This document shows positions 9,574 to 24,897 of a stretch of DNA of 64,000 nt, one piece after another. Position numbers and translations under genes: made by a program. This DNA is from Tricharina praecox (taxonomy: Eukaryota): positions 434,001 through 498,000 of the forward strand of contig NW_026250405.1 in assembly GCF_024521635.1 (NCBI RefSeq), written 5' to 3'. Each line of letters starts with the position of its first letter. Position 1 is the first letter of the stretch. The notes under the pieces were generated by a model that saw only the letters and a list, made by a program, of their open reading frames with translations, had not been told where the DNA came from and did no database searches.

Positions 9574-10323
9574 CTATGCCATCATATCTTCGTCCTCTAT
9601 CGCCCTAGCCGCACCGACAACCTCTTCAACAGCTTGTTCAAACGCAGCCCTACTCTCCTCCAGTATCGCCGTAAACTCCTTCATAGCCTTCCTCTGCTCC
9701 TCAATCTCCCTCATCATCACGTCATTCCTCCTCCTAGTCTCCGCCAACTTCTCCTCCTCCCTCTCCACCGCCATCCTAAGCACGGGCCTAAGATGCGCCT
9801 CGACGACATCCCTGGGCGGCAACAGCGACGGGGTGACTGGGACCGCGCCCTCAGGCGCGGCCCTCCTCCTCTCGATCGCCTCAGCCATCAACTCATCGAG
9901 CGCATTGAGGCTCTGCACGACCTTGCGCCGGTGGAAGATGAGGTCCAACTCCGACGGCCCGCGGGTAACCATGTGTGTGGTCATGGCCGTGTGTAGCATT
10001 TCGAGCTTGCGCGGATTCGCGCTCGCGAGCTTCGGAAAACAGCTGCTGAAGTTCACAACGGTTATCGGCGACATGCTTTTGCTGAGCGCGCGGTTGTAGG
10101 CGGCGCGTAGCGCTGAGGCTCGTGCGCCTTCGATCAGAGGGACGTCGGGAGACTGCTCGTCGTCTTCTTCTGGTTGTTGCTCATCTTGCGGTTGCTCAGC
10201 TTGCGGTTGCTCGTCTTGTGGTTGCTCGTTTTGCGTTTGCTCGTCTTGCGGAGGTTGGGTTGCCTCTTCTTGCAGGGGTTGCGGCTCTGAGGGGGTTGCG
10301 TCGGCCAGCGGAAGTTCTGCCAT
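9574..10323 (-). CDS. NNF1: Kinetochore MIND complex subunit Nnf1 (PMF1), 249 aa, intronless
   Basis: Q/E/P-rich N-terminus, then GARASALRAAYNRALSKS...NFSSCFP...IFHRRKVVQSLNALDELMAEA...P and a C-terminal coiled coil, typical of Nnf1. Confidence 0.85.
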   Translation of the reverse strand: MAELPLADATPSEPQPLQEEATQPPQDEQTQNEQPQDEQPQAEQPQDEQQPEEDDEQSPDVPLIEGARASALRAAYNRALSKSMSPITVVNFSSCFPKLASANPRKLEMLHTAMTTHMVTRGPSELDLIFHRRKVVQSLNALDELMAEAIERRRAAPEGAVPVTPSLLPPRDVVEAHLRPVLRMAVEREEEKLAETRRRNDVMMREIEEQRKAMKEFTAILEESRAAFEQAVEEVVGAARAIEDEDMMA

Positions 10324-10592
10324 TTCAAAGTGGTGTTGGTCGTGGAGTGCTGGGCGCGTGGGGAGACGCGACGAGACGTCGGTATTTCATGGGAGATGGT
10401 ATGTGCACGTGATTTCATAGGAAGTCACTCCGTTTTGGTAAAATACAAACGAGTGATAATCATCACGTCTCTAAAGAAAAATGGCAAAATAGATCCCAAG
10501 AACAGATATCGTAATACAATTCAACAGCAAATAACGCCTTCAGCATTAACAAAACCAATGTCCCAGGAAAAAAATAAAACAAGACTTCGCAT

Positions 10593-15034: not shown

Positions 15035-15995
15035 ATGACCTTCGAAACCAAAGCTACAATCGCCAGCTTCGGCGGTAAGCTGCTGAAGCTTCAACACGAC
15101 AGTGCGTCCTCTTGAGTCCGCGCCCCCAAATAACCTCTAACTCTCCCTAGGCAAATCCACTGGCACTCCCATGGCCCTAAACCTCTACCTTCCACCTCAA
15201 ACCAACACCACCAAAGTCCCTGTCCTAATCTACCTTTCTGGACTCACCTGCACGGGCGACAACTGCGCAGAAAAGGGCTTCCTCCAACGCCACGCCGCGC
15301 AGCACGGAATCGCGATCGTGTACCCCGATACCTCACCCCGCGGGGCCTCTATCGCTGGTGAAGATGACAGCTGGGACTTTGGTACCGGCGCCGGGTTCTA
15401 CGTGGATGCCACCAACGGCCCGTGGGAGAAGAACTACAAGATGTACTCGTACATCACCTCGGAGCTTCCGTCAACACTCTTCCCCGCGTACAAGGACCAG
15501 CTGGACTCCTCGCGCGTGTCGATCACCGGACACTCCATGGGCGGCCATGGTGCATTGACGCTGTTCCTCAAGAACCCCGGAATGTACAAGAGTGTGTCCG
15601 CATTCGCGCCCATATCGAACCCTATCAACTGCCCGTGGGGACAGAAGGCGTTTGCCGGATACCTGGGCGAGGATAAGGAGGCGTGGAAGGCGCACGATGC
15701 GACGGAGCTCCTCAAGGAGTGGAAGGGCAAGGGTTTCAAGGCGCTGATCGATGTCGGCACTGGAGACAACTTCTACAAGCAGGGACAGTTGCTGCCAGAG
15801 AACTTTGAGAAGGCGGCGAAGGAGGCGGGTGCCGAGGTCGAGGTTCGATATCAGCCTGTGAGTTACCTTCCTACGAAAATTAACAGGGAGGGAGAGGGCT
15901 AATGGACTGTGCAGGATTACGATCACAGCTACTTCTTCATCTCCACCTTTGGTGAGGACCATGTGGCCTACCATGCGAAGTTTTTAAAAAACTAG
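15035..15995 (+). CDS. S-formylglutathione hydrolase (esterase D), 284 aa, exons 15035-15101, 15151-15857, 15915-15995
   Basis: LSGLTCT, PDTSPRG, WDFGTGAGFYVDAT, nucleophile elbow GHSMGGHGAL, CPWGQKAF and YDHSYFFISTF. Confidence 0.95.
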
Positions 15996-18900
15996 TGGGT
16001 ACTCACCCTCCAGATGGCCAGAGACTTTGGGCTGATGGCGGGAAGGGGTAGTGGGATGGTGAAGCTATAGGCTGGCTGGGAGGGAGTGTGTGTGTGTGTG
16101 TGCTGAAATGAATCTTGTTATATACACATGTGCTATTGCTCGCCGTTGCTCTACTTATGCCTGAGAAGCATAGAACCATGATGGTTCGCTGGCTGGGAGT
16201 CCAGTGTTCGCCAGCCTCATTTTCCATCCAAGATCGGTACCTTGCGGCCTTGCCACCACTTGAATCTCCGAACAATGCATTCATTTCCCGGTTCTCACAC
16301 ATTCCGTGGTCCAAACTTCAGCCCTCTAGTTTCATGTGCGCACACGCCTTGAACCCCCAGTCGGGCGAACGAAATGAGGTAGATATGTATCAGAGACATC
16401 TCCTGAGTCCTCTACCAATCGGCGCAAAGCCCAGGCCTGTACATCACCGATGAGGCATCCGTCTAGAAGGCGCGGACGCCGTGTCTGCCCTCCACCACCA
16501 CCACCACCAGGCTCTGTCCTGCCCCACCCCGCGTGCTCGTCCACTAGCGCACTAGCGCACCCTGGCATTGTGGCTTATCGATTATCGGGCTTATCGGAAC
16601 TTCGGCTTGTTCCGGATAATGGTTGGCAGCAGCGGCCGCTGGCGCTTAATTACATACAGACTTTACCGTGATTAGCCAGGGGGGGGGACGGATTAAGCGC
16701 TAAGCGTGCGGGTGCGGGTGCGGGTGCAGGTACCCGTGCTCCCGTGGAGATTCTCGGTCGCGCCTGGAGGATGTGCCGATGGATGGATGGAATCACCGAT
16801 CAAGCTCGGCTTCGCGCACCATGGATTCAATCCGATCCGTTAAATGCCCGAAATGCGGCCCCTGTCGGGAAAACTGCGGTGCCACGGCTCAGGTCGGGAC
16901 CGAGCCGTGTTGTGCCATATTCTGAAGGTTTCGGTATGTCCGTCCTGCGAAAAGATCGGTCCCGGAGCCGTCGTCCGGTACTTCTTTCCACGTCGCCTGT
17001 CCGGATCAGTTCTAGCTACAGCCTACAGCCCACAGCCTACAGCACAGTCATGAAGATTTACGGGTTGCCGACGAGGCGTGAAGGCGGGCCGGTGATGCAC
17101 ATTACATACATGAGTAACTACATGTGGTGCTAAAACCCCGCATGTATGTACTGTGCCACTCGCTTGATGGTGGGATGGTGGAATGGAGTCCGTACATATG
17201 AAGGTCCAAACAAGGCACATCTTCGAGAGCGGGGTCAGTGAGCTCGAGTGGTGATGCAGAGTTGAAGTGTGGCTGGATGATATGTACCGAGGGCTGCGGA
17301 GTGTACAGGAATCGCGGGGCATGATTCGTGACAGTGCCGGGGTCGCCGACCCGCCGACTAGTGTAACTATCTCCGTCTACGCCCGGGTAGGGCAATCATT
17401 ACCCCGGATTGCCCCGGTGGATTTTTCATGCAGCACATCTCGGGTACGGCTTCGTCTGTAGGAGCTACATCGATCGGCTCTTCGTGGGTGCGGGGTAGAG
17501 GGATGAGTTTACCGGTGGCCGGTAAATTTTGCCCAATACATCTCTGCCTACTCATGCACATGTTCCTACGAGGCAAAACAAGTGGCTCTCCCAGAAACTG
17601 CATCGTATGTACATACATGCCGGCGACTTCGCGTCTCCACATCCAATATCCCGTAAGCGCATCTATCGAGCGAAGAGTGCCGCTTGAGGGTACATACATA
17701 CGCTACAGAAGCGCGGCACTTTCAGGGTGCGGGTTAGGTCGATCGAGGTGTGATCGATATGCGCTGTTGGGGTGGGGCGGACTACCGCGGAGCACGATGC
17801 TAGAGGGATTTCCGAGTTGGCGTTGACCGGGCGCTCGACTGAAGGCCTGTTTGCAGAGTGGTACTCATGCCATTCATGTTTATACAACCCGCCACCCGCG
17901 CCTTTAGGTATCTCGACCAAGTCCAGAACCCAGCGTCTGCGCCGGTGAAGCGCGGCTCGCCGAACGCTTCCGGAGCGGTAACACACAGATGCGCCGTGCC
18001 GATTGATAGATAGATCTGTTGATTCAACTGGTAAGCTGTCAGATACACTCTATGTCCACCGGGACCCCGCCCATATATATGCTCATATCGGATCAGCAAT
18101 GACACCATGCATCGCACCGGGTAATGCTAAACCGTGAGCGTGGATTATGCACATCTACCAGCCCAAGGTGTGGCTAATATCGAGTAACCGAGTGGCCAGG
18201 ATCGCAACGGCGGGGATTGATGGATGGATACCGGCGTTTATGCACCTCCCTCCTCCTAGAATCAGGGTTCGAATCTATGCGATAGATATATAGGACCGAT
18301 GTGCGACGGGGATCGTGGGTGTAAAAAGTACGTACCCGGGCTGGAACGGCTGGAAGCCTGGAACAGAGCTGACAACGATTGGCTGCGGGGACGCCGTGAA
18401 CTTTACTGGCCGTCGACCCCGCCTGACTGTACCATCCCATCCCAGCGCCATAAACTCGGATTCCCCGGGTCGTCGATCAGCATGAACCTCCAAACTCCGA
18501 TTCGAATCTCTATCCCCTCAGTCGTGATTAGATCGTTCGAAAGCCCGGCCGTGGGCTGGGGAGCCTGACGCCTGCAGGATGCAGGGTGTACATAGAGTGC
18601 AGAGTACGGACGACAGCTGTGGCTCACATGACCGTTGCCCATGAAGTTCTAGAGCACTTGGAACAGTGGCTGACGGTTGCATGCATCCTTGGTACTTGGT
18701 ACAGTAAGTATGTAAGCAGTTACTTGTATGATAGCTGTAGTTTGTTTCCAAGTGTAGCAACTTCTGCCTAGTGGGGATATGTTTACTCTGGATTCTAGTC
18801 TGACAATTGATCTGGCAAACAGGATAATGGGGTGATGAAGATGCTGGAGCTAGGATTGTAGTGGTTGTCGGAAGGCATGAATCAATGTACAGATGTAACT

Positions 18901-19466
18901 ATGGGCATTGGACCATGAGGTGCCGCTTTTGTTCACTGTAGTATGGACGGACTGGATTGCCCAAAGGGAAGCATCATGGTGATGGTGACCAACATTGACT
19001 TGTGAGCAACAGCTAGAATACAGTAGAATAGACTCATACAACACAAGCTCGGAAGCAAAGGAAATCCATCCCCAGCGCACAGTCCTTCGACAATACTGGT
19101 ACAGAATCCACCGCAACACAGACAGTACAAGTACAGACTCCACAAGCCATCAACACATACATAGGAGACAAGGAGAAAATGAAAAAACAGAATCTATTGA
19201 CCGCACAAACGGAAATCGATCAAGTGAAATATGTAAGGAAAGAATAGATGGCCGAGCTCAGGAAGGAAAGAGAGGTAAAAAGAGTCAAACACAAAGAGGT
19301 ACGGCAGACACAGACAGGCACGTACAGTGCAGATACAACAAGGAAGGAAAGCGAATCCGAAGGGATGAGGGAAGAGGAGGAGGAAGCCACCACCACCACA
19401 GCCAATCACAGCTGGTGGGGGCGTCCAGTTCGAGGCACAGCCGGAGATCGTGTGTCGAGGGCTGAC

Positions 19467-19687
19467 TTAGGTCCGACTGCTCCACAGTCTAGCAGCCATT
19501 GTTGAAATCTAAACAAAAGCAAATGTCAGAATGTGTACAAACAAGCAAAAGCAAAGAGGACACTACAAACCTTTTTGGTGGAGCGGAACGCGGAAGTCAT
19601 CTTTCGTCCACAGTAAAGCCCACATTTCTGACAGACGGGGACCTGCGAGGTCACTTCGTAACCGCAGCTAGGGCAAGTGAATCTCAT
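19467..19687 (-). CDS. Putative zinc-ribbon microprotein, 52 aa, exons 19687-19571 and 19508-19467
   Basis: MRFTCPSCGYEVTSQVPVCQKCGLYCGRKMTSAFRSTKK/ISTMAARLWSSRT*. Two CxxCG knuckles, a 62-nt phase-0 intron (GTTTGT...CTGAC...TTTAG) and a pyrimidine-rich leader upstream. Confidence 0.65.
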
Positions 19688-22600
19688 TGCGTTGATTGAT
19701 TGAAGGTGTTTGTAGTGGAAAGAGTCGAGGAAGACCCGAAGGAGGAGGCGATAGAGTACGGTGAGGAGGATTGAGAGAGAAGATGCTGAGGTGTTTGGAT
19801 GATGTCGGGAGAGTTGGTTTGGAATATGTATGTCTGGCGAGCTTGCTGAAGAGTGTTGGTGAATATCTCGAACATAGGCAATTGGATCTGGTCCTCATAT
19901 ATGATTCTTTAGGCCTCTGAAGGATTGAAGTTAGTGGGACGTTGTCCCCTGAACTGCTCCATACCCACCACCACCTCCACCTCCACCTCCATTCAATGCG
20001 AACCCACTATACCAAAGGATCCAGCGGTCTGGGGGACATGTTGCACAGCCGTTTCCCTATCGCTCAGGAACGGTCTCCCTCCTTTTCTGGCATGGAGCAC
20101 CGACTGGTGAGACGCACATACTGGGAGTAATTGTGGATATCGTGCGTGCATGAGAACGAGTAGGGCGGAAGGATCGTTGGAGGTGGTATCGACCAGATAA
20201 CGCAGGAGGTTCGGCAAACGACAGCCTAGCAAGCGACCGCTGTGGCAAATGCAGGGAGCGTCATGTGTGGAAGGTCTGCGGAAGCTTCCATGGAGCATGT
20301 GCTGCACGGCTGCACGGCTGCACGGGCTGGCTGCCTTCCATCGTTGGTTCCATGCTCCATGCACCATGCTCCATCCAATCTCAGTCTGCACCAACGACGC
20401 TGGACGATGGTTTGAGCGCTATGGGGGCTGTGTGCTGTAGCTCTCCCGCTACGGCTAAGGCACGTGCGGCGGAAGGGCTGCGGCCGGGCCTGTAAGCTGT
20501 GCAGAATCTTTCCATGCCTTTGGAGGGGGTGGGCAGAGGATCCGGTAATGCAGGCTTTAGCAGTGGTCAGAGCTTTTCGGAGGCGAAAATTCGCTCGTTA
20601 AGCTGCAGGCAGTCATGGTCAGCGGTTGGCAGCAGAGAGACCGTGCACGCTTGGGCCGTGCCCTGGTGTGGTGGTACAGAAGCGCGCGGTTGGTGGCTAG
20701 CCGACTAGCGACTCCCTCCGCAGAGATGCACCGCCACCGAATGCCCGTTTTGCATTGGGCGACCGTTTAGGACCGATCGCACTACGGTGCGGCCAGATGG
20801 CTAGCAGTTAAGGAGAGGGGTAACTGCCGTGAGAGGTGCAATGGCTCGTTCGCCTGCAAATCGCTTGCTTGCTGGCACCGTGCCGCACTCACGATCATAG
20901 CATTCACCGTCCTACATACTCAACCTCACCGTTAATCTAGTGACGATAATCGCAACACCCGCCCGCGCCGGCATCAGTTCATCATTCTATCAAAACAACC
21001 TTGAAACAAACTACCACTTCCGCTCCTTTCCATTGTTTCCCTCCTCCACCACCCTTGCTCGACTCCATCGTCGCATATCGTACGGAAGACTCCGTTGCCT
21101 TCCTTTGCGCTCCTGGGAGGGGTGGCCAGTCGCGGGGAGGAGCTGCAGGCTCGCTGGACGCACTTGAACATCTGTAACTCCCCCTTCGAATCTGTTTTAC
21201 ATTCCCTGTAACGTCGGCGGGGAAGGGGGGGGGGAAGAGGAGGGGGGGGTGGCAAAATAAAACCGAAACAGACAGCCTACGCGAGCTCGCTTCTCCATCT
21301 TAGACACTCGCTTATCTTATTATCTTATCGATTGCACTTCCGTTAAATGCTTGCGGTGAGTTCTGTGTTTGTCGACACGCACTGTGCGCGCGGGAAAGGC
21401 GCAGCCACTTACGCAGTAGCCGGAGTAGGTAAGGGTCTGGCTGTTCGTCTGTGCATAGTCATGGCGTCTGTGGCTGCCTAGCCTCTCTCTCTCTCTCTCC
21501 GCCGCTCGTTCACTCGCGTCGCTGTAGGGCATAGATTTCACAAGTTTTTTACTTTTCCGCGAACAAAAAATATTGAAGCCGAAAAAAAGGTCGGAGCAAT
21601 TACCGCACTATGATCGGTTTGCGCCAGTTTTGCCGCCAGCCCTGAAGTGAACCGCCAGGATAGTATGGGTTCTAGCGCCCCCCCTCCCCCGCGCGGAGGT
21701 TTATCGCGATTGCAGAGTTCGGAAAATTCTTCAACGAAGCACCATCCGTGTGCGTTCCTGACTAGGTACGTACCATGAAACACGCAAATCGCATTGAGAT
21801 TATCATCACCCACCGTCATCATCGCGATCATCCTCAGCAACATCCTCAGCACCATCCTCAGTCCACTACCTATGGTTTTTTCGGTTTCGTCATAGCACAT
21901 TCAATTTGGTCTTGATCATGATGACACTCAGCCAACTATGGGTATGAAAGGAACATTCTTTGCTGTCGATCGATACCAAGTGTCAAAGTTCCAAAACCGG
22001 CAATCTTGAAGAATCCTTCGCATTCACCACCGTCCTCTATGTACAATAAGAGGGCCCCCCCCCTATCTCCGCTCAAAACGGGAAAAATGGCATTCAAAAC
22101 AAAACAAAACAAACACCCGGAAATCCTTGACGGTGATGCCCAGTAACTCCATGGCCCATCCCATCCCGATTTCAACTTTGTAGGGCGAAAAGAATATCGC
22201 CCGGCCAATGATCCGTGTATCATCAACCCGGATGACCTCTTCCAACGTCGTACCGGTCAAGCAAGTAGAATGACAGCTGGTTGCTAACCGGCTTCCGGAA
22301 CGTGTGTGTGTGTGTGTCTGATTCGATTCAGGAACTAACCCCCACCCCCCGGAAAGAGAAAATGCTGCCAACGAACGCCCATCGAGTGGGTTGATTCGTT
22401 CAGCACGCATCTACCGATGCAAGTCAAGATTGTAATGTTCCTGTGACGCACACCCATCCACCCCCGGTGAATGGTGGCCTAATGGCTACATATCGTGATC
22501 TTCGGGGATGGCTGCTGTGTCTCCGCTGCTGCTGCTGCTGTCGCCGCCACACAGTGACGTCTCCGGTGTCGATCCGTAAGCTCACGATGCCCACGTCGGC

Positions 22601-23979
22601 GCGGATGATATAGGGCATCGAGGGGAGCCTGTGATGCTGTGAGGCCATCAACTGGGAGGCATTGTTTCGGATAGCACGACCGAGAGCTCTGAACACTCGC
22701 TGTCGATTATCCCTCCTGTCTTCCCTGTCGTGGGCGGCAATTCGAGATTAGGTGGCTCTCGGCTGACAATGGACCTATTCAGCCAAGGGGTGAGATGATG
22801 GATCGTATGCCATGTGTCGTGTGGAGGGTGAGTGGCCGGCCGTCGTGACGGTCATCTTCATTCGATGCATACCGTACGCATGAAGCGTCACCTACACGCG
22901 GCCAGATCATCTAGAACGGTACGGAATGCCCATCGAGCGGACTCTGCTCGTACACTTGGAATCAGCATCGATCAGGACGAGTTCGTTTTCTGGAGATACC
23001 GAAAGAGCCCCGAGGGAGAAGTTGCAGTTGGGCCGCGCCTTGATTTGGGACAAGCGCGTGAGCCGCTCGGATCCGATGCAGATGAAACTAGCGGCGCGAC
23101 GCAATCGGCCGCTTGTCTCAGTATCACTGGATCGGAGTCGTGTAGGGTACCCATAGCCCAGCCATGGTCGAGGCAGAGTGCGCGGCTGAGAGCGGGTGAC
23201 TGAGCTAAGGCGGAGCGCAAAGAGGGGTTGCAGGGTTTGGGGACGATTTCGCGAGGCAAAGGGTGGACCAAGAAGAACCCCCATGGCTTCATGCAGCGCT
23301 AAGGGAGTCAAGAATGCTCAAAGTACCAGACAATAAAGCACGGCTCAAGCACTCTCGAGTCCCGCCGCCGCAGAACACCGATTCTAAAGCGTGTGCAACC
23401 TCCTATGCGACAGCAACCGGCCATCAACAGAGCGTAAGGTAGTCTCAATGCATCCGCTATATATCGACAGCCCCGCCTAATGCCGTGATATTCCTGAGCA
23501 GCTAGCTAGCAGCGAAACAATAGCTTCGATTCGATTCGGTTCGGATTCCTCCGACACACTGCGGCTTCTCTCGCGCATTTCCTCTCCATCCTCTCCTGCG
23601 CGTGGCGTGTGTGCGACCGCGCAAACTCCCGTCGGCCATCTCCCGCATCCTAAAGTTGCGGTTCTCCGGGTTCGGAAAGAAGTAGGGTCGGTCCGTCCCT
23701 TTCTACTCTACGACCTCGCGCTTCGAGCAATATTGATCCTCCTGTGGCGCGTAGCAGCACCAGCCAGCATAGTTTCCCCATTCGAGGTAGCTCAAACAAC
23801 CGCGCGCGCGCACGATCGATATCGCTCCGAAACCACGGCCACAGCCACAACCCACTACCACTACCACTACCACACTTCTTTCTTACTTGCTGCCCATCTC
23901 TCCATCCCTTCCCATCCCATCCCATCCCATCCCCCGTCCCGTCTCTCGTCCGAGCTCGATCCCTAACCTCGCCCACGCG

Positions 23980-24897
23980 ATGGCCGCGCATTACCGGAAG
24001 CACATCGCGCCTATCGCGACGTTCCGGGATGTCCGCAGCCAAGTGGGCCTGCTCCATCGGTCGGGCAACCGGCGCATCTGGGGCTTGGGGTCGGAGGTTG
24101 TCTGCCGCGAGAGGCCGATCACGGCTGTCGAAACGCCCAACGACGAGTTTGCGATCCTCGAGTTCCTCCGCGAGAACACCAGGATCCCCGTGCAGAGGGG
24201 ACTCCACGAATGGCTCGACAAGGAGAGCCAGGTGCACTTCTCCCTCAAAACGAAGATTCCCGGCGAGTCGCTCGAATCGTTGTGGCCGACGCTCACCTGG
24301 CGGGAGAAGGAGAGGATGGCCGACGAAACGGCCAAATATCTGAAGGAGCTCCGGGGGCTGACGTCAAACTACTACGGAAGGGTCAAGGAGAGTGGCAACG
24401 TCGATACTCTGATGTTTAACTACCCGCAGCCTAAACCACAGGGCCCGTTCGCCACCCAGGACGAACTTTGGAACGCGATGGTTGCGACGCTCAAAGGCCA
24501 GATCCCCCGGAAGGCTCTCTCTCGCTTGCGGGCCCAAATGCCCGAATGTCTGCCCTGGACCTACACGCATGGCGACCTCGGCTTCGGCAATATCATTGTG
24601 AGAAATGGCCATGTCGTGGGGATTCTAGATTGGGAGTGGAGCGGCTATTTCCCGTGCTGGTGGGAGTACGTCAAGTTCCGGGCCGGGCTTTCGATCTGGA
24701 TCGATAGGGAGTGGTGGGATCTGCTCGAGTACCGACTGGAAAAACATCAGGATGCGTATGAATTCTATGACAAGTTCCACTCGTTGGTCTGGAAGGTCGA
24801 GAGCGCTACTAGGAGTATAGACCCGACTAAGGTCAAGATAGGTAATGCCGTTCTTGAAGAGTTGCTCGAGGATGAGAACGGGGTATCGCTCGAGTGA
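23980..24897 (+). CDS. APH/choline-kinase-like phosphotransferase, 305 aa, intronless
   Basis: Brenner-type motif YTHGDLGFGNIIV followed by GILDWEWSGYFPCWWEY. N-lobe NDEFAILEFLRENTRIPV and IPGESLESLW. Confidence 0.9.
   Translation: MAAHYRKHIAPIATFRDVRSQVGLLHRSGNRRIWGLGSEVVCRERPITAVETPNDEFAILEFLRENTRIPVQRGLHEWLDKESQVHFSLKTKIPGESLESLWPTLTWREKERMADETAKYLKELRGLTSNYYGRVKESGNVDTLMFNYPQPKPQGPFATQDELWNAMVATLKGQIPRKALSRLRAQMPECLPWTYTHGDLGFGNIIVRNGHVVGILDWEWSGYFPCWWEYVKFRAGLSIWIDREWWDLLEYRLEKHQDAYEFYDKFHSLVWKVESATRSIDPTKVKIGNAVLEELLEDENGVSLE

Follow-up and report, generated by a model that had tools for sequence, protein, structure and literature searches.

A transcribed and spliced locus in Tricharina praecox that probably encodes a small basic zinc-ribbon protein

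Genes for proteins of fewer than about 60 residues are routinely missing from fungal annotations, and to our knowledge few small-protein candidates combine a confirmed splice with a conserved reading frame. A 64,000-nucleotide stretch of Tricharina praecox DNA (the window) raises the question at a single locus. Between an esterase-family ORF (15141-15899, PF00756) and an APH-family phosphotransferase ORF (23791-24894, PF01636), does a minus-strand reading frame with two zinc knuckles belong to a spliced gene for a microprotein, as predicted from the letters of the sequence? The answer bears on whether stand-alone CPxCG-type zinc-ribbon microproteins operate in fungi too, and the locus lends itself well to a clean test: it has one predicted zinc site, all five cysteines are conserved, the intron is delimited and the neighborhood is largely empty. 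We find a spliced transcript and a reading frame conserved in one relative, and we consider that the locus is probably a lineage-restricted, unannotated two-exon gene for a predicted basic Cys4 zinc-ribbon microprotein.

A spliced transcript carries the reading frame

The minus-strand ATG at 19685-19687 starts a 39-codon first exon whose translation, P0001, is MRFTCPSCGYEVTSQVPVCQKCGLYCGRKMTSAFRSTKK. It contains the motif C5-P-x-C8-G9, nine residues, then C19-x-x-C22-G23, spelled CPSCG at residues 5-9 and CQKCG at residues 19-23, with a fifth cysteine at C26. The ATG, the two knuckles nine residues apart and the fifth cysteine had been claimed in the original prediction and are present in the translated minus strand, and the 62-nt intron with its CTGAC branch site and TTTAG acceptor and the short exon-2 tail are likewise found in the sequence as described (Table 1). 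The branch-site A lies 17 nt from the acceptor. The predicted spliced product has 52 residues, a mass of 5845 Da and a pI of 9.87, with nine lysines and arginines against one acidic residue, and its stop codon falls 42 nt past the splice junction, within the last exon. The frame begins four residues before the first cysteine, and no in-frame ATG, GTG or TTG was found in the window 5' of 19687 before a stop. An exact look-up of the 53-residue unspliced ORF in the protein collection found it absent.

Table 1. Features of the transcribed locus, in window coordinates
Feature	Position	Strand	Description
Coding exon 1	19571..19687	-	39 codons; both knuckles, Cys26 and the beginning of the basic tail
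Intron, 62 nt	19509..19570	-	GTTTGT donor, CTGAC branch site, TTTAG acceptor
Coding exon 2	19467..19508	-	13 codons and TAA (19467-19469); in frame over the observed splice joint
3' untranslated region	19047..19466	-	About 420 nt; X1 and X2 contigs begin at 19048 and 19047
5' leader of the short form	19688..19846	-	X2 contig end at 19846; pyrimidine-rich, ATG-free
Upstream stretch	19847..20607	-	Covered in X1 alone; holds ATGs 19898 and 19875
TATA-like ATATATGA	19895..19902	-	49-56 nt upstream of the X2 contig end
Tandem repeat (GCTGCACG)x3.1	20301..20325		TRF, 100% matches; about 620 nt upstream of the ATG

Two public sequencing runs from two studies, X1 and X2, contain 19300-20000; both are typed as RNA by guess. 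We aligned their contigs to positions 17500-21500 of the window. One contig in each run joined 19508 straight to 19571, skipping exactly 62 nt; the ends of the skipped stretch read CT..AC on the plus strand and GT..AG on the minus. Even the shorter flank of the joint comprises 255 letters, and the contigs show no further letter differences. Cover of the aligned region is patchy (20 of 30 bins in X1, 14 of 30 in X2) and the X1 contigs differ in depth (4.8, 12.3 and 5.8), so that the two runs behave as RNA and not as genome runs. Since the joint occurs in two runs and the 62 nt are present in the window's own DNA, the transcript and its intron are real; the run type being guessed, the joined form could in principle exist as DNA. 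The splice had been predicted for 19509-19570, and contigs from both studies skip precisely that stretch.

The contigs carry no information on the strand, ends or level of the RNA, and the uncovered parts of the aligned region, among them 17500-18169 and 20716-20983, allow no statement on silence. The spliced X2 contig covers 19047-19846. The spliced X1 contig covers 19048-20316, and a second X1 contig (20288-20607) overlaps it at the GCTGCACG tandem repeat, where the X1 contigs break. Illumina adaptor letters stand as a loose end directly before the contig starts in both runs, a weak hint of a discrete RNA 3' end at 19047/19048, about 420 nt beyond the stop.

At the 5' side, the stretch covered in X1 alone may belong to an isoform with a longer 5' end or to another transcript that overlaps this one. 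A start site close to the X2 contig end would make ATG 19687 the first AUG, since there is no ATG from 19874 to 19688; if the X1 extension is part of the same RNA, the two upstream ATGs precede that of the zinc ribbon. The second of them, at 19875, opens a 63-codon ORF whose TGA overlaps the zinc-ribbon ATG as ATGA (19684-19687), a layout at which translation could terminate and start anew, provided that the long 5' form of X1 is one RNA. Upstream of the coding region, the original prediction had pointed to a pyrimidine-rich leader, a TATA-like element near 19900 and a threefold repeat at about 20301-20325, and each was recovered. The leader at 19688-19874 is 65% pyrimidine and 9% G and is ATG-free for 188 nt, a length reached by 6% of the ATG-to-ATG gaps on the minus strand; ATATATGA is a putative promoter element, and the GCTGCACG repeat is perfect by TRF. 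A (CCACCT)x4.5 repeat at 19965-19991, between these two elements, was skipped in the contig alignment.

Exon 1 is conserved in a metagenomic relative

We compared the microprotein with 1.84 billion representative proteins by HMMER and obtained 51 matches at E<=1e-3. A single one of them, P0002 (262 residues, E 5e-13), matched exon 1 over its full length, with its residues 210-248 aligned to residues 1-39. In the other 50, the best stretch was confined to the knuckle region and never reached residue 36; all five of those inspected carry CxxCG...CxxCG modules, four of them in tandem repeats. The cluster of P0002 has two members, and both P0002 and its mate P0053 come from JGI/ENA metagenome contigs (82.9 and 67.7 kb); they differ from each other at two positions, both in the leader.

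The alignment of exon 1 with P0002 is ungapped, with 31 of 39 residues identical (79%). Invariant are M1, C5, P6, C8, G9, C19, C22, G23 and C26, and the eight changes (F3A, S7N, T13S, L24N, T31A, F34I, T37A and K38S) all lie outside the knuckles. On either side the similarity falls away: 4 of 12 columns are identical in the leader, with a one-codon gap, and 5 of 14 in the read-through of the intron, where the donor and the branch site account for three of the five. The exon differs significantly from its flanks (31/39 versus 9/26, Fisher test p = 5.6e-4). The block of conservation has the borders of the ORF itself, as predicted by selection on the protein. The original prediction had proposed conservation of the cysteines in related genomes as a check; P0002 retains all five cysteines, P6, G9, G23 and the start methionine in an unshifted frame, between flanks that have diverged. 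The comparison is made at the protein level and covers exon 1, as P0002 ends in the intron read-through.

P0002 itself is a gene-caller artefact, made of 209 low-complexity leader residues, the orthologous exon 1 and 14 intron residues. Its read-through opens with V-C and closes with F-stop after the same 14 codons, which would fit a conserved GTxTGy donor and TGAC branch site. Farther upstream, its leader can be aligned to that of the window in another frame alone, at 36% identity and with gaps. We therefore rejected the upstream in-frame sequence as part of the protein, an extension that is also ruled out by the stop upstream in the window.

Further searches for relatives gave blanks or false leads. 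A word-index search of proteins of 29-93 residues yielded no candidate, nor did one of 94-2000 residues, a weak blank, as P0002 lies in that range and shares several 5-residue words with the query; such blanks weigh little for short, Cys-rich queries. The same search with residues 203-262 of P0002 returned P0002 alone. A metagenome scan with 8-residue patterns, which P0002 did not fit, gave 432 matches, two of which passed tblastn. One (L001) was rejected because its match lacks the Cys pattern. The other (L002) was rejected because it encodes a bacterial membrane protein of 277 residues whose N-terminal zinc ribbon is generic; the first nine residues of the protein encoded at L002 2218-3051 are identical to those of the microprotein, and its N-terminal knuckle is generic.

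The main rival to a coding gene is a spliced long non-coding RNA, in which the ORF would be untranslated and the 117 conserved nucleotides would serve as an element of the RNA or DNA, reading as a zinc ribbon by accident. We regard it as possible and yet unlikely. Such an element would yield the identical picture at the protein level, where synonymous and non-synonymous change are merged. The ORF takes up 159 of the approximately 740-1500 bases of the transcript, upstream ATGs lie within the X1 cover, and a Pfam search of the microprotein reached the cutoff of no family. Nor is its codon composition distinctive: GC3 is 0.58, against 0.55 +/- 0.08 for 52 small ORFs of the ORF-poor stretch and 0.59-0.77 for the four flanking ORFs with Pfam matches. 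What argues against an element of this kind is the shape of the conservation, which begins at the ATG and fades in the intron, leaves exon 1 free of indels next to a leader with a codon gap and a change of frame, and spares all nine motif-defining residues while the eight changes fall elsewhere. In addition, Rfam 15 gave zero matches at E<=1 over 16000-24000, and the strict double-CxxCG motif did not arise in simulated DNA.

We examined this last point by counting. The strict pattern CxxCG-x5-25-CxxCG occurs in one of the 674 ATG-ORFs of at least 20 residues in the window, namely the microprotein ORF, and in 0 of 100 first-order Markov simulations of 64 kb, while the loose CxxC..CxxC pattern has a mean of 0.33 per simulated window. 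Elsewhere in the window, a 15-nt tandem repeat at 10178-10285 on the plus strand has one frame that reads as a run of C-S-S-C-G units; it is a DNA-level repeat mimicking zinc knuckles and is probably antisense or out of frame to a long minus-strand frame at 9574-10386. As a real repeat can read as CxxCG in this way, the Markov simulations understate what real DNA produces. Real DNA being non-Markovian, and many windows having been scanned, the motif by itself is insufficient, and the weight lies on two independent lines obtained later, the splice and the conserved relative.

The same two lines of evidence bear on a chance ORF in pervasive transcription, functionless as RNA and as protein. Rare motifs are expected by chance when very many windows are scanned, and the tandem repeat shows how readily DNA can read as CxxCG repeats; this reading is nevertheless very unlikely, given the same spliced form in two runs from two studies and an exon 1 that is 79% kept beside flanks at about 35% pseudo-identity. 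At the flank rate (p = 0.36), the binomial probability of at least 31 matches in 39 is 3.5e-8.

Likeness to known zinc ribbons

The nearest Pfam families are generic zinc ribbons. Zn_ribbon_3 (PF13248) scores 23.3 bits (E 4.1e-5), below its gathering cutoff of 27, with residues 4-23 aligned to positions 4-23 of the 26-position profile; Zn_Ribbon_1 (PF13240, 19.3 bits) and DZR (PF12773, 16.7 bits) also stay below their gathering cutoffs. The AF2 model has a mean pLDDT of 71, about 78 for residues 1-30, and two short strands. Its top Foldseek matches shown are mostly small zinc fingers or ribbons (rmsd 0.7-1.4 A over 23-26 residues), LysW, HVO_2753, NZF and RanBP2-type fingers and Nop10 among them, with 0 matches in the PDB at E<=1e-3. 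By sequence, the PDB matches are weak and all zinc-ribbon RNA-binding proteins: the best is bL32 (5li0_4, E 0.0058, 19.9 bits), and HVO_2753-like and archaeal ribosome-bound zinc-ribbon proteins follow at E 0.015-0.03. A protein atlas returned generic small zinc-ribbon clusters only (0.88-0.92).

The match to bL32 suggests another origin, in which the ORF was derived from a larger gene or is a piece of one: it would be either a severed copy of the bL32 zinc ribbon or the first exon of a longer protein that extends into the transcribed island downstream, at 18285-18906. The microprotein shares with bL32 the CPxCG-x9-CxxCG spacing, a Val that precedes the third Cys and a Y-x-G that follows the second knuckle, and both are small and basic; bL32 binds RNA in the ribosome. 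The Ribosomal_L32p profile (PF01783), however, gives 14.0 bits (E 0.058) against a gathering cutoff of 21.3 and is matched at positions 28-54 of 56, so that the N-terminal half of bL32 (1-27) has no equivalent. As only the C-terminal half is matched and the generic zinc-ribbon models score higher, we rejected a bL32 identity and did not file the ORF under bL32. A fragment of a larger gene is highly improbable, since the spliced contigs also run from the stop to 19047 with no further joint and end in adaptor letters, and the frame lacks an upstream in-frame start.

As for classes of small stand-alone zinc proteins, Tarasov et al. (2008; PMC2253796) describe the CPxCG small zinc-finger class as proteins of fewer than 100 residues in which two Cys/His patterns are spaced by 7-40 residues and one or both are CPxCG-like, and its members as stand-alone proteins of 50-70 residues built on paired Cys patterns. 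The class makes up 8% of small proteins in archaea and 1.5% in bacteria, in line with the mainly archaeal background given in the original prediction; it is defined by its motif and is neither a homologous family nor a lineage. The 52-residue microprotein, its knuckles nine residues apart, falls within this pattern definition, which for a pattern class is no proof of common descent.

Brz of Halobacterium salinarum acts as a gene regulator. The microprotein resembles the haloarchaeal class of Brz and HVO_2753 in having CPxCG and CxxCG nine residues apart within 52 residues. Unlike the members of that class, it comes from a gene with a spliceosomal intron and a leader of eukaryotic style. A chain related to HVO_2753 of Haloferax volcanii matches at E 0.015, and the structure 6ydh is at Foldseek rank 5 (E 0.95); the alignment of HVO_2753 contains more than one knuckle pair, whereas the microprotein has one site and a spare Cys. 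Bacterial zinc-ribbon domains (PF13248, PF13240 and PF12773) provide the best Pfam matches, but the proteins that carry them are longer, with the module repeated or membrane domains added, and none aligns with the tail, which limits the likeness to the knuckles.

Among eukaryotic proteins, Nop10 and the RNA polymerase subunit Rpb12 are of about 50-70 residues, each contain one zinc ribbon or what is left of one, and serve as adaptors in RNA-protein machines. Nop10 is found among both the PDB sequence matches and the Foldseek matches, and the microprotein is likewise small with a single zinc ribbon. In contrast to these two families, which occur across eukaryotes and are recognized by Pfam, it exceeds no Pfam cutoff and has one relative among the 1.84 billion representatives. 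The predicted microprotein would join the known small stand-alone zinc-ribbon proteins and is not a new principle. A literature search on zinc-ribbon microproteins in fungi found none, and by their titles and the opening of their abstracts, papers on small ORFs in filamentous fungi and zinc contained nothing on such a protein.

The predicted product and its surroundings

The favored two-exon gene would work as follows. A spliced minus-strand RNA spans 19047 to at least 19846 after removal of the 62-nt intron, and in its short form the first AUG would open a strongly basic protein of 52 residues. Residues 5-23 would fold as a single Cys4 zinc ribbon, in which CPxCG and CxxCG together hold one zinc ion, and residues 27-52 would form a flexible Lys/Arg-rich tail. 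Archaeal small CPxCG zinc-finger proteins and zinc-ribbon ribosomal proteins work as zinc-stabilized adaptors that bind RNA, DNA or protein. The most likely mode of action is of the same kind, a zinc-stabilized adaptor whose ribbon surface and basic tail would bind an RNA, DNA or protein partner. If the microprotein is translated, the locus would illustrate how a small gene with an intron, overlooked by ORF lists and protein databases, can be recognized by reading the raw sequence.

In a bolder version, the coding gene would be the first known member of a family of stand-alone CPxCG zinc-ribbon microproteins restricted to one fungal lineage, and its product would either regulate by binding RNA or DNA in a zinc-dependent manner or be a factor associated with the ribosome. 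It would then be a eukaryotic counterpart of the archaeal zinc-finger micro-proteins, with its own intron-bearing mRNA in a gene-free, partly transcribed interval. We hold this to be doubtful; were it true, fungal annotation would miss such genes systematically.

One part of the original prediction did not stand, namely that the gene could explain the empty flanks at 16-19.4 and 19.9-23.9 kb. The covered transcript spans just 0.74-1.5 kb, which leaves about 8 kb without genes unaccounted for. A Pfam search of 54 stop-to-stop frames of at least 70 residues in 15.9-23.8 kb had 0 matches at cutoff, and the sole near miss was the microprotein's own frame.

Very deep 31-mers matched a G-rich low-complexity stretch at 21212-21252 with 4 mismatches in all four runs, the other two being the soil metatranscriptomes X3 and X4, whose matches were confined to 31-53 low-complexity letters at 21214-21251 with 4 other letters. 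We attribute these matches to a probable sequencing artefact, the loose ends being poly-G, and do not count them as expression. A second transcribed island lies at 18285-18906 (18285-18818 in X1, 18353-18906 in X2), with a gap in cover between it and the microprotein transcript; its frames have no Pfam match, and it could be a separate RNA. With further transcribed islands at 20288-20607 in X1 and 21032-21182 in X2, the interval between the esterase and APH ORFs is partly transcribed.
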